Part shown: piece by piece, positions 38,682 through 56,234 of the stretch
Layout of the letters: every line of letters starts with the position of its first letter
Numbering within the stretch: the first letter of the stretch is position 1
Sequence record: PQ741806.1
Direction: 5' to 3' (one strand)
DNA from: Pseudomonas phage Pa_AttikonH10
Length of the DNA: 64,000 nt
The notes under the pieces: model-generated
What the model was told of the DNA's origin: nothing
Database searches by the model: none
What the model saw: the letters and a program-made list of their open reading frames with translations, nothing else
Program-made: the position numbers and the translations under genes

Positions 38682-38695
38682 ATATAGATCTTAAA
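38682..38695 (-). promoter_or_regulatory. Early-promoter-like motif; minus-strand reading TTTAAGATCTATAT(C)A.
   Basis: One of 5 copies of TTGAGAT(C/T)TATAT(T/C)A; lies about 130 nt upstream of the beta gene start, in a divergent intergenic region. Confidence 0.35.
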
Positions 38696-38704
38696 TAAAA
38701 TTTA

Positions 38705-39079
38705 TTGGAATTTATTATGGCATTCACACTGTTAGCTAATCAGCCAGATTCAGGTGAATCTGTTTATTATGAACCAGGGTTCAGATTAATTATTGAGACT
38801 CATTTGAATATCTTACGTAATGTCAGATCCACACGTATTCAGATTCCACCTGAACTGTATTACCAGTTCGAAGGAAACTTTTATGGATACATGGCAGAAC
38901 GCCGTGTCAATCCTGATATGTGGTGGATTCAAATGCGTGTTAATGGTTTAGTTAGCCCTTATGATTTTGGTAAAGTTCTAAGGGATCCTTCAGCTAATGA
39001 TTACACCAGCTATTTAATCATACCGAATAACGACATGATTCAACACCTCGTTAGCTTATATCAAACTAAAAAGTTTTAA
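38705..39079 (+). CDS. Hypothetical protein (124 aa).
   Basis: ORF followed by the hairpin CCAGGGGACCCTTAGGCCCCCTGG. Confidence 0.65.
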   Translation: MEFIMAFTLLANQPDSGESVYYEPGFRLIIETHLNILRNVRSTRIQIPPELYYQFEGNFYGYMAERRVNPDMWWIQMRVNGLVSPYDFGKVLRDPSANDYTSYLIIPNNDMIQHLVSLYQTKKF

Positions 39080-39120
39080 AGCAAGCCAGGGGACCCTTAG
39101 GCCCCCTGGTTTATGCCGTG

Positions 39121-40512
39121 TTACAGTAGACGACCCATCATTTGGTTTCCACCTAGATTCATCATCGCGGTGTTACCATTACCAGCTAGAGCGGGGTTTA
39201 GTGCTTGTGCAAATCCACCACCCATCGGCATTTGATTGCCCATGAGTTGCATCATTTGCGGATGCATATTAGCCATCATTGGTTGCTGTGGCTGCATCAT
39301 CCCAGGCATTGCAAAGTTATTGTTCATCATAACAGGTTGTTGCATCATTCCGGGTTGAGCAAATTGGTTTTTCTGCCCAGCGTTTAGAAGATCTTGGATA
39401 GATGCTTTATTGCTAGTTTGAACTTGTTGTGCGGGACGTTGAGGTGCCTGAGTCATTGCTACAGCTTGACTCATAGATGGATTAACATTCACAGTTGTGC
39501 CTACTGGTACACGTGTAGAAGTAGTTTGTTCTTTAGCAGTATTACCCACTTTAACTACACTATCCTTTTTCTGGACAGGAATTTGGGCAACTGGGTTTAC
39601 AGTTTCAGAAGCTTCTTCTTCTACTTCATTGCTGACTCCTTCATTACCATCAAGAGAGGGGATCTCACGTTGCATCTTTGCAAAATCAGCAATCACCTTC
39701 TCATCAACTTTTGAATAAGGTTGAATAGCATCATCGAAGATCAGGCGATACTTATCAATAACACTATTTAGTTGAGTAGTGATTTTGTTAAATGCCTGGA
39801 TAAGACATACAAAATAAGGTGCTACCCGCTCAACTGTTCCTGCTGAATATTCAGTTGGTGAATCACCAAATGGTACAACTAGTTTAAATAGTTCGATTAG
39901 AACTGGCCGCTGTTTCTTAGGTACATTTACTCCAAGGATATCATCTTTAGAATAAAGATCCTCTACGATAGGGAACCGAATAACGCAGATACGGTTAACT
40001 GTCTTCCCATCAAATTTACCATTTGCTTTTAGATACACGCTTACAAAACGTGAACGTTTTTCAGCAGCTTTGACAACCTTATTAAACCACTCAATGGTAT
40101 CTGGCTTAGCACCGGATAGTTTCTTTAGGAAGTCTGAACATTCTGGTGGAATGTCTTTATGCAGAGTGGAGTCGGCAGCTACTTCTAAAATACGTGAAGT
40201 AAGATACTTCACAGTAAACATTAGATTAGCCTTAACTTGACGCTGCATATGCTGTAGTACTTGAGAAGTACCTAGCCGAGAGATCTTTTCAGATAGCGGG
40301 TGGAAGGCGATGTAATCATCGCCTAGCCCTTTACGAAGCCAATCTTTAGTAGGTACCACTAGTCGCTTACCATCTACCTTTGCAGGTGCAGGTCGACCAA
40401 GTGGATCGAGAATACTGATCATATCCTCTTCACCTACTTTGTATCGGAAAGCAGGTAATACTTGATCACTATAGAACTTGGAAAGAGAAATCGTAGGCAT
40501 TGTTATCACCAA
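39121..40512 (-). CDS. Hypothetical protein (463 aa) with a roughly 110-aa Met/Gln/Pro/Asn-rich C-terminal low-complexity tail.
   Basis: Tail ..QPGMMQQPVMMNNNFAMPGMMQPQQPMMANMHPQMMQLMGNQMPMGGG..; the start may be the internal M at 40500. Confidence 0.7.
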   Translation of the reverse strand: MVITMPTISLSKFYSDQVLPAFRYKVGEEDMISILDPLGRPAPAKVDGKRLVVPTKDWLRKGLGDDYIAFHPLSEKISRLGTSQVLQHMQRQVKANLMFTVKYLTSRILEVAADSTLHKDIPPECSDFLKKLSGAKPDTIEWFNKVVKAAEKRSRFVSVYLKANGKFDGKTVNRICVIRFPIVEDLYSKDDILGVNVPKKQRPVLIELFKLVVPFGDSPTEYSAGTVERVAPYFVCLIQAFNKITTQLNSVIDKYRLIFDDAIQPYSKVDEKVIADFAKMQREIPSLDGNEGVSNEVEEEASETVNPVAQIPVQKKDSVVKVGNTAKEQTTSTRVPVGTTVNVNPSMSQAVAMTQAPQRPAQQVQTSNKASIQDLLNAGQKNQFAQPGMMQQPVMMNNNFAMPGMMQPQQPMMANMHPQMMQLMGNQMPMGGGFAQALNPALAGNGNTAMMNLGGNQMMGRLL

Positions 40513-42142
40513 ATTTAGGATTGATTTGAGCAGGTTGAGCTACAGGATGTTGATACGGTTGCATGTTAACCGGCTGACCACTACTGTTTAGAATGTTTTG
40601 TTGAGTCTTAGTTGGGATAACATTCTTAACAAGATAGGTAAGGTCATTAGAGATCATAGCCGGTGCAGATGCATCCCGAGTAATGACTGGACTAAACAGA
40701 CTATCAATGAAGGTCGGTGCGATGAATCGTTCTACCGATTCATGATTTAGACTGATATCAATAACAGTATCACCAGCTAAGTCAGAGTGCATGGAAATTT
40801 TAAACGGAATCTGGTTACCATAAGAGATACTGTTAATCGCATCGGTAATAAGACGACGTTCAAAGTCATTAATCTGTGGAGTCATATCAATTCCATCCAT
40901 GATACTCCTGGTACCATTTGGATGCATTTCGAATAGATAGTTATTCGCTCCATGTCCATTTGTAATTGCAAAGGAGGTTACCCGGAAATAGTTATCCATC
41001 ATGATTGCTGGAACTACTTGTGCAAGTAGAGATGCTGCAACAGTGTGATGATCTGCACCACCCCAATGCATGGAATGCTCTGCTCGGTTAACGAAGCGTT
41101 GAGAATTACCATTATCCATACCAGCTTTAACTACACCATCAACCAGTAGTTCAGGGAATACTCGTTGTAGGTCAGCCAGTGTAACAAAGCCACGTTCCAT
41201 GTAATTGCAGCGTTCTTTTAGAATGCGCATGAACATATTGGAATGGATATCTTGATTTCGAAGTACAGCTGATGCATCACCTAGCATCACTTCATCAGAG
41301 ACACCTCCAAAGATATTATCGTTATCATTATTAGCCATCTCAGCTTCTTTAACAGAATGCTGCCATGCATTAAGAGTACTAGATAGATAACGAGTAGGAG
41401 AAGTATCACGGCGATTTGAATATTGGAAAGTACCTGCTTCACCAACACTGGAACGTTGATCAATGATCCGGTCAAATACACCTTGATGTAGTCCAGTTGA
41501 TTCAATGCGTTTAGCTACTTGCATCGTTTGCTGAATCTGGAAAACATCTTCTGGCCGTTGGAGATATGATGAAGTTCCAGTATACATGCTAAACCCGTTC
41601 TGAGGGATAGTAATATCACTCATGATATCGACGGGTGCAAGGATCTGGTTAGAACCTAGGATATGTGCTTGTTTAACCACACCAAACTCAGTTGGTCGTT
41701 GACGCTCTACAATAACAGTTTCACTATTAAAATAGATACGCATGTTAGGATCTAGACTATTGCTAAGCGGACTAATAGAGCAATGGTCAGAGCAACCAAA
41801 TAGAATCCGGCAAGTACGGGTATTACCAAAGAAACGGTTATTCTCCCATACTTTCATCATGAACCTAAACCGGCGTTCACCCCAACCATTGACGATAGGG
41901 ACTTCGCCTTGAGTTTGAGCACGTGGTGCGATCACATCAGCTGCAATTTGCTGTACAGCTGCAACACCTAGATTACGACCATCATTAGTTGCTTCTTTTA
42001 AACGTTCAATAGAGTTCTCAGTGACCTCTACAGTAAATGGTCGAACATGTTCAGGTTGATAAGTACCAGTTTGTACTAGAATGAATGATTCAATCTGTAC
42101 TTCAGTATTACCGCCCATTGCTGAATTATTAAAACCTAACAT
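40469..42142 (-). CDS. Hypothetical protein (557 aa).
   Basis: ORF in the same operon as the RNAP genes. Confidence 0.7.
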   Translation of the reverse strand: MLGFNNSAMGGNTEVQIESFILVQTGTYQPEHVRPFTVEVTENSIERLKEATNDGRNLGVAAVQQIAADVIAPRAQTQGEVPIVNGWGERRFRFMMKVWENNRFFGNTRTCRILFGCSDHCSISPLSNSLDPNMRIYFNSETVIVERQRPTEFGVVKQAHILGSNQILAPVDIMSDITIPQNGFSMYTGTSSYLQRPEDVFQIQQTMQVAKRIESTGLHQGVFDRIIDQRSSVGEAGTFQYSNRRDTSPTRYLSSTLNAWQHSVKEAEMANNDNDNIFGGVSDEVMLGDASAVLRNQDIHSNMFMRILKERCNYMERGFVTLADLQRVFPELLVDGVVKAGMDNGNSQRFVNRAEHSMHWGGADHHTVAASLLAQVVPAIMMDNYFRVTSFAITNGHGANNYLFEMHPNGTRSIMDGIDMTPQINDFERRLITDAINSISYGNQIPFKISMHSDLAGDTVIDISLNHESVERFIAPTFIDSLFSPVITRDASAPAMISNDLTYLVKNVIPTKTQQNILNSSGQPVNMQPYQHPVAQPAQINPKFGDNNAYDFSFQVL

Positions 42143-42158
42143 AGAACTACCTCAATTA

Positions 42159-55499: not shown

Positions 55500-55574
55500 T
55501 TTAAATACCTTTACGATTATGGTTTCTTGATCAAGAAGAACCTAAGTACTTAGTATACTAGATTCAATTTAGTA

Positions 55575-55588
55575 ATATAAATCTCAAA
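55575..55588 (-). promoter_or_regulatory. Early-promoter-like motif; minus-strand reading AAAAAAATTTGAGATTTATATTAC.
   Basis: Lies 80 nt upstream of the chimallin-like ATG. Confidence 0.4.
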
Positions 55589-55810
55589 TTTTTTTCATTA
55601 CAACATAGACGCTATAATCTGCTATCAGCAGATCGTAACGAACACTATGTTCACTACATATTATTACAATCTGAGTATTATTTATTTTTCATCTTACAAT
55701 TTCCATATCTTCTTTTTTGAGTTTATGGGTATAAAGTTTGAATCCAGAAACTAATTTACGTCAGTCCTGTATTAAATAATAACTATCAGTATTTTTATAA
55801 AATGCAGTTA

Positions 55811-56176
55811 TCATTTACTTCGCATATACTTACGAACTGTTCCAAAAAGAGAATGATACAGTTTGTATAGTTTACTAACTGGATCAACTTTATTATTATC
55901 AGTTGTATCAAATTTAGCAATAAATGGTGAATGTGCCGAAGCAGATGTTTCATTTACTTTAACTACACTACCAAATCGATATGCGACTAATACCTTTATT
56001 AATTCCTCATGGAGTTTAGTAGCAGTTGCTAATGGATTGGGATCATTAGGATCTATCTTAATCCTACGCTCGACATTGAAAAAGTTTACTACAATTTCTT
56101 TGCTAGTCATGTATACAGTAAGATCTTTGTTATTACCTAAATATAGTGGCGGATCTTCAACATTATTTTTAGCCAT
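55811..56176 (-). CDS. Hypothetical protein (121 aa).
   Basis: ORF about 50 nt downstream of a motif copy. Confidence 0.65.
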   Translation of the reverse strand: MAKNNVEDPPLYLGNNKDLTVYMTSKEIVVNFFNVERRIKIDPNDPNPLATATKLHEELIKVLVAYRFGSVVKVNETSASAHSPFIAKFDTTDNNKVDPVSKLYKLYHSLFGTVRKYMRSK

Positions 56177-56220
56177 TGTATATTCCTATTTGTAATTACT
56201 ACTGTTGTTACCAAACTATG

Positions 56221-56234
56221 ATATAGATCTCAAT
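56221..56234 (-). promoter_or_regulatory. Early-promoter-like motif (minus-strand reading ATTGAGATCTATAT(C)A) in a divergent intergenic region.
   Basis: Motif family copy; may also serve the plus-strand gene at 56258. Confidence 0.35.

Follow-up and report, generated by a model that had tools for sequence, protein, structure and literature searches.

The window analysed here is a stretch of 64,000 nucleotides from Pseudomonas phage Pa_AttikonH10 (PQ741806.1), a phiKZ-like Pseudomonas jumbo phage with a GC content of about 37 %. Positions 38000-58500 share 99.5 % identity with Pseudomonas phage PA_ZH1, and 98-99 % with about 50 further phiKZ-like phages. The window is reverse-complemented relative to the phiKZ reference (AF399011/NC_004629), and genes on the plus strand of phiKZ are therefore found on its minus strand. 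This part of the genome contains the gene for the nuclear shell protein chimallin (ChmA, gp54) and genes for the second, non-virion RNA polymerase (nvRNAP). Several of its minus-strand units are preceded by a short AT-rich element. Five such elements were described in an original prediction, made from the letters of the window, as promoter-like and as resembling the phiKZ early class. The number of elements, their structure, their counterparts in other phages and the polymerase that is likely to read them are reported below.

Motif family and anatomy of the elements

The five 14-mers of the original prediction were located at plus-strand coordinates 38682, 43761, 50857, 55575 and 56221, exactly as reported. 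All five are real, but the count was incomplete, as the window contains six elements of the same subtype and seven early promoters in all, none of which lies in the structural-gene part (1-32 kb). The degenerate pattern ATATARATCTNAAW matched six times where 0.07 matches were expected, a count that was reached in no sequence out of 100 shuffles; the match that had been overlooked is at 58316-58329. A position weight matrix (PWM) of the six sites scored its own sites at 33.5-41.5 bits, and at 17.3-33.8 bits when each was left out in turn, and on both strands of the 64-kb window the next best position scored 10.3 bits and the shuffle maximum was 16.4 bits. The six copies are thus a discrete family. 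A match with two mismatches at 50397, which is plus-oriented and inside gp57, was rejected as being at chance level (1.68 such matches expected per window).

All six copies are on the minus strand, in non-coding DNA and on the same strand as the gene downstream. Copies occurring equally inside genes had been named in the original prediction as evidence against promoter function; none was found in coding DNA, and the chance of six out of six falling in non-coding DNA is about 2e-6, with about 11 % of the homologous phiKZ stretch being non-coding. The Bobae annotation places a tiny hypothetical coding sequence (CDS) over the gp68 copy, and the phiKZ RefSeq record has no such CDS. The 14-mers lie 30-76 nt away from the start codons, within the 20-130 nt that had been claimed, and the distance from the predicted +1 to the start codon is 20-66 nt across the copies.

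Alignment of the six sites over about 40 nt of the minus strand gave an asymmetric element consisting of an A-tract (about -32 to -25), the block TTT(R)AGAT(C/T)T (about -23 to -14), a -10-like octamer that is TATATTAC or a variant of it, and a TG. The TG occupies positions 6-7 after the octamer in all seven copies, and its G, the seventh nucleotide, is the predicted initiating base. The combined minus-strand reading AAAAAAATTTGAGAT(C/T)TATATTAC was present in two copies, as claimed. The octamer is exact in the gp68, gp54 and gp76 copies, and carries one mismatch at 50857, two at 38682 and 56221, and three at 58316 (variants in Table 1); TATATCAC and TATATCAT are likewise found among validated published promoters. 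The A-tract and TTTRAGATYT are kept in the six copies and in the phiKZ promoters P012, P017, P089, P091 and P099, which lie outside the window.

Match to phiKZ early promoters and conservation in other phages

Transcription start site (TSS) positions and upstream sequences for phiKZ were taken from Putzeys et al. (bioRxiv 10.1101/2023.10.13.562163, supplementary Table S3). Four of the five originally predicted copies are homologous to mapped early TSSs: those at 56221, 55575 and 43761 are phiKZ P025, P028 and P034, and that at 50857 is homologous to P030, all four being classed there as 'early promoter'. Each mapped start coincides with the G that lies seven nucleotides past the octamer or with the base that follows this G (Table 1). 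The octamer TATATTAC is itself the published core, being the sequence listed for the phiKZ promoter alongside TTTRARR_BTATATTACDWHDGTG for phage 201phi2-1 (PMC7058600 Table 2). The phiKZ early promoters have been described as having an extended, highly conserved AT-rich element at about -10 and a T-rich part upstream of -19 (PMC7598289, PMC8244752), with the TSS 6 nt 3' of the consensus (PMC5312081); 28 were reported by Ceyssens et al. 2014, 32 by Wicke et al. 2021, and 18 were recovered by Putzeys et al. 2024. The motif is therefore the already published early promoter of phiKZ-type giant phages, and the assignment of the elements to the phiKZ early class, directed toward minus-strand genes, agreed with the published data. 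The genes assigned to them were also essentially right, namely chimallin gp54, gp68-gp70, gp70.1-gp71/73-gp74, gp53 and the PHIKZ058.1 homologue.

An independent PWM was built from 11 published phiKZ early promoters, all located outside the window. It placed the six sites 2nd to 7th in the window, all on the minus strand, with the gp68 copy (34.5 bits) and the gp54 copy (30.2 bits) above the shuffle range. The first rank, at 46.4 bits, was held by 32375-32413 on the minus strand, which the original prediction had not listed. This seventh element is located between gp75 and gp76. Over 39 nt its sequence is the same as that of phiKZ P125, and it is present in phiKZ at 70331-70346.

Table 1 Early-promoter elements in the window and the mapped phiKZ promoters to which they correspond
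Element	Window position	Strand	Sequence or octamer	TSS in window	Leader	phiKZ promoter	phiKZ TSS	phiKZ gene	Validation cited
Early promoter of gp68-gp69-gp70	43751..43789	-	TTATACTAAAAAAAATTTGAGATCTATATTACTAACATG	G 43751	27 nt to ATG 43724	P034	57998	gp68	Wicke 2021
Early promoter P54E of chimallin/ChmA (gp54, 53619-55499)	55565..55603	-	TTGTAATGAAAAAAATTTGAGATTTATATTACTAAATTG	55565/55564	66 nt	P028	45583	gp54	Ceyssens 2014, Wicke 2021
Early promoter of gp53 (55811-56176)	56211..56249	-	octamer TATATCAT	56211/56210		P025	44937	gp53	Ceyssens 2014, Wicke 2021
Early promoter of a lone small gene, PHIKZ058.1 homologue (50634-50822)	50847..50885	-	octamer TATATCAC	50847	25 nt	P030 (homologous)	51729	PHIKZ058.1	Wicke 2021
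Early-promoter copy of gp70.1 (38533-38652)	38672..38710	-	octamer TATATCAT	38672 (predicted)	20 nt				
Sixth copy, upstream of PHIKZ050.1 homologue (58099-58275) and gp51 (57393-58115)	58306..58344	-	octamer TATATAGT (weakest)	58306 (predicted)					
Seventh early promoter, second subtype	32375..32413	-	TTGTATTTAAAGCATTTTAAACAGTATATTACAAATGTG	32375 (predicted)					

These promoters stand at the head of the units that contain chimallin and four of the five nvRNAP subunit genes. The fifth subunit of the nvRNAP is gp68, and its promoter copy is identical to phiKZ P034, with orthologous copies in phages PhiPA3 and 201phi2-1. Downstream of gp70.1 are the nvRNAP genes gp71/73 (37356-38555, 36131-37033), followed by gp74 (34067-36100). 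Terminator or terminator-like hairpins are located directly upstream of three copies, at 58346-58366 (the gp50 terminator, before the sixth copy), at 50927-50952 (before the PHIKZ058.1 homologue) and at 32431-32454 (before the seventh element), and thus mark the starts of these units.

The same elements were found in other genera. PhiPA3 (Miltoncavirus) and 201phi2-1 (Serwervirus) were scanned by pattern search and not by PWM, and the pattern AGATYTATATYAY, with at most one mismatch, gave six copies in each of their 42-kb syntenic loci, always on the gene strand, against 0.33 and 0.66 expected, respectively. Among them are sites upstream of the chmA, gp68 and gp71 homologues and upstream of the gene that diverges from the gp52 homologue. 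The orthologues at the gp53 position are at 17778 in the PhiPA3 locus (L005) and 18126 in the 201phi2-1 locus (L006), and those at the gp71 position are at L005 33987, which also has TATATCAT, and L006 37955. In alignments with both phages the promoter of about 35 nt was kept and the flanks could not be aligned. Experiments in a study of 201phi2-1 revealed an early promoter upstream of its gp68 homologue, gp124.

The promoter upstream of chmA is kept in seven Pseudomonas phages, which represent at least five genera and include Psa21, Phabio, Viktualia and PA1C. In Erwinia phage RAY (L012 113-148) and E. coli phage Goslar (L013 311-343), an A-tract, an exact TATATTAC, six further nucleotides and a G precede the chimallin gene; both are very distant chimalliviruses, with ChmA identities of only about 23-25 %. 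An exact octamer at this degree of protein divergence means that the core of the promoter assigned to the virion polymerase is far more conserved than the proteins it drives. In DT01 an EL-type ACATTAT variant lies upstream of chimallin.

Polymerase assignment and alternative readings

Early transcription in phiKZ starts right after injection of the DNA, is not inhibited by rifampicin and does not depend on newly made proteins, and for these three reasons it has been attributed to the co-injected multisubunit virion RNA polymerase (vRNAP). The nvRNAP, which is made from early genes, then takes over from the vRNAP. The published timing and inhibitor experiments point to direct recognition of the elements by the vRNAP. 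The vRNAP, injected with the genome, would read the early promoters, which would head units containing chimallin, the nvRNAP genes gp55 (by read-through from gp54), gp68, gp71/73 and gp74, and small early genes. The early promoters would in this way form the first, or bootstrap, step of a transcription cascade that is self-contained within the phage.

Several points weigh against this assignment. All of the TSS data come from phiKZ and not from the phage of the window, and the sites at 38672-38710, 58306-58344 and 32375-32413, which correspond to phiKZ positions of about 63077, 42842 and 70354, have no TSS in Putzeys Table S3. With the independent PWM, the four copies with variant octamers reached only 7.8-12.4 bits and did not leave the range of the shuffle maxima (mean 8.1, highest 13.7), and the octamer of the 58316 copy is poor. 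The case for recognition by the vRNAP is built from timing and inhibitor data, and the literature search found no report of reconstituted vRNAP transcription. The phiKZ sites homologous to the gp70.1 and sixth copies (about 63054 and 42818) carry the motif; at the latter position Table S3 lists terminator T023. The ONT-cappable-seq study of Putzeys et al. recovered 16 of 32 known early promoters. With all of this considered, the elements are taken to be early-class promoters of a phiKZ-like jumbo phage with a probability of about 0.93.

The blocks TTGAGA and TATATT resemble the -35 and -10 hexamers of host sigma-70 promoters, and the elements could accordingly be used by the Pseudomonas RNA polymerase (RNAP) at the onset of infection. 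A sigma-70 consensus scan flagged the gp54 copy twice, at the minimum threshold of 9/12. The hexamer-like blocks are, however, only 3 nt apart and not the 16-18 nt of a sigma-70 promoter; only one of the six copies was flagged, at the lowest score; and phiKZ infection has been reported to be rifampicin-insensitive and independent of the host RNAP. Sigma-70-like matches as a class are also depleted, to about half, in this part of the genome, with 42 at 38500-58450 compared with 75.8 (sd 9.3) in dinucleotide-preserving shuffles. Use of the elements as host promoters was therefore rejected and is very improbable. The depletion is an observation of its own, and could be a sign that promoters for the host RNAP are avoided in the early region.

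Reading by the nvRNAP, which would make the elements middle or late promoters, was also considered, as gp54 has both an early and a middle promoter and is expressed from middle promoters too, and the homologues of gp71 and gp74 in 201phi2-1 have been placed under a middle promoter. The elements differ in sequence, however, from the motif of middle promoters (AAanTTACc, or TACT centred at about -22 to -24) and from that of late promoters (TATG, with its G as +1), and neither motif stands at its required place in the seven aligned sites. P54E is a named early promoter from which the purified nvRNAP does not transcribe in vitro (PMC4666361), and genes for the subunits of the nvRNAP lie downstream of the elements, so that another enzyme must read these promoters first. 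This makes the nvRNAP a most unlikely reader of the elements.

The AGATCT block is a 6-bp palindrome, and the original prediction proposed that it might allow the element to fire in both directions. This proposal was not supported: AGATCT is present in only three of the six copies, with AGATTT in the others, and the reverse complement of each site gave no score with either PWM. In other validated early promoters the place of AGATCT is taken by AGATAT, AACAGT, ACCAGT or AAAGCT, and in relatives by ACATCT or AAATCT. The block could alternatively be a symmetric operator, bound by a dimeric phage or host DNA-binding protein that controls divergent transcription, as two copies lie in divergent gaps: the gp53 copy is opposite gp52 (plus strand, 56258-57349), and the gp70.1 copy is opposite a plus-strand open reading frame (ORF) at 38717-39079. 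Against an operator are the replacement of the palindrome elsewhere, the location of four of the six copies in co-directional gaps, and the lack of score on the reverse strand; Putzeys Table S3 lists no opposite-strand TSS beside the gp52/gp53 copy, and gp52, for which the annotation is structural head protein, would belong to the late-type genes. An operator function of the block is accordingly given little credence, and the AGATCT palindrome is incidental to the early promoter. The plus-strand ORF 38717-39079 (120-124 codons), which lies between gp70 and gp70.1, is annotated in Bobae and has 201phi2-1 gp127 as its positional counterpart; it is unannotated in phiKZ AF399011/NC_004629.

Promoter variation, the chimallin leader and known promoter systems

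Two architectures can be recognized among the early promoters. Type A, with the A-tract and TTTRAGATYT, comprises the six window copies and P012, P017, P089, P091 and P099. Type B, TTTAAAGCATTTTAAACAGT, comprises the window copy at 32375 and P001, P002, P056, P109, P122 and P125. Further copies of this second architecture (TTTAAAGCATTTTAAACAGTATATTAC at 32375) were found near 2.2-4.5 kb in the 100 kb of phiKZ searched, and published promoters of this kind map at 107 and 221-247 kb in phiKZ; none was found in the fetched PhiPA3 or 201phi2-1 loci. The octamer TATATCAT is located at the same two orthologous promoters, at the gp53 position and at gp71, in phiKZ-like phages and in PhiPA3, which suggests position-specific tuning of promoter strength that has been kept between genera. 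That the early promoters form two architecturally distinct subclasses, with position-specific weak octamer variants conserved between genera, is a tentative proposal that is rather more doubtful than probable. No description of early-promoter subclasses was found in the literature, and the published logos pool all copies. If the proposal were true, early transcription by the vRNAP would be graded or sub-timed by promoter architecture and would not be a single class; a trace of cassette duplication would explain the subclasses equally well.

The 5' untranslated region (5'UTR) of chimallin gp54 contains the palindromic decamer CTTGATCAAG at 55526-55535 on the minus strand, which is the only exact copy in the window. 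The decamer is invariant in the seven Pseudomonas-group phages compared, about 30-40 nt after the early TSS, and its flanks diverge; in relatives it is found at L005 19823, L006 19825, L007 415, L008 419, L009 426 and L010 433. At the same relative place the distant phages have other short palindromes (ACTTGCAAGT in RAY, AATGACGTCATT in Goslar and ACTAGGCCCTAGT in DT01), and the flanking extension of the leader palindromes co-varies (TTCTT..AAGAA, TTAACTT..AAGTTAA). RNAalifold gave no consensus structure for the chimallin leaders, and a literature search for CTTGATCAAG or a chimallin UTR element returned nothing relevant. The decamer CTTGATCAAG is a candidate for an operator or an RNA element that controls chimallin.

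The early unit at 50634-50952 on the minus strand consists of a hairpin, a promoter and the 62-codon PHIKZ058.1 homologue; it is situated between gp57 and the last exon of gp55 (PHIKZ056.1 homologue). The same cassette is located between gp58 and gp59 in phiKZ (51690-51940). Judged from these positions, the unit appears to behave as a moron-like mobile cassette with its own vRNAP promoter.

The gp70.1 copy also differs from the type strain. Its sequence is TATATCATTGATTTG in the window, as in 43 of 46 phiKZ-like records, and TATATCATAGTTTTA in phiKZ and in two further records, one being the RefSeq duplicate of phiKZ. When the promoter-proximal region of gp70.1/gp71 (38650-38710, minus strand) was compared with phiKZ 63044-63101, the window form, with TG at +1, was at least 97.5 % identical in the 43 of 46 relatives, and the phiKZ type strain was 92 % identical and had no G at +1. 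This difference may explain why no TSS is listed for this site in phiKZ.

Rfam models of group I introns gave three strong matches (79-89 bits) on the minus strand, two inside the nvRNAP gene gp55 (51836-52085 and 51250-51570) and one between gp71 and gp73 (37109-37337). The HNH endonuclease ORFs of phiKZ (gp56, gp72) are missing from the window introns. For phiKZ no evidence of splicing was reported by Putzeys et al., which is surprising in view of intron models as good as these. Downstream of the promoter at 32375 is an unannotated hydrophobic mini-ORF of 21 codons, MKKKLIMITIVVIAYKLWEWK (32287-32352, minus strand), followed by gp76 (32030-32302), and the stop codon of the mini-ORF overlaps the start of gp76 (ATAATG).

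The finding matters mainly as correct annotation, in that it marks where the injected virion polymerase would start the infection programme; the motif itself opens no long-standing question. A 'consensus early promoter' already drives the selectable cassette in phiKZ transposon mutagenesis, and these promoters are thus engineering parts. The by-products, namely the chimallin-leader palindrome, the relocated cassette, the group I introns without ORFs and the possible subclasses, are perhaps more useful to specialists.

The closest known system is the set of phiKZ early promoters, which belong to the same species group. They have four loci (P025, P028, P030 and P034) in common with the window, as well as the octamer TATATTAC, the upstream blocks rich in T and in A and the G at +1. 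Nothing essential differs, apart from the P030 cassette being elsewhere, a consensus-like +1 region in the gp70.1 copy that is missing in the type strain, and two window copies without a matching TSS in Table S3. The early promoters of 201phi2-1 (TTAWTAVAA_HYWTTTRARR_BTATATTACDWHDGTG) and PhiPA3 and the OBP/N1M2/EL variants are alike in architecture and in position relative to the chmA, gp68 and gp71 homologues; related chimalliviruses differ at single positions, and EL-type phages use ACATTAT in place of TATATTAC. Bacterial sigma-70 extended -10 promoters also have an AT-rich element at about -10, and the upstream A-tract of the window motif is reminiscent of an UP element, but the window motif has no -35 hexamer at 16-18 nt spacing and transcription is rifampicin-insensitive. 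We know of no sigma factor for the vRNAP. The early promoters of the AR9 vRNAP, AAATATATATTAT-(6N)-G+1, likewise combine an extended AT-rich -10-like element, six nucleotides and a G start, and are assigned to a virion multisubunit RNAP, although AR9 is a distant phage with another consensus and a uracil-containing genome.

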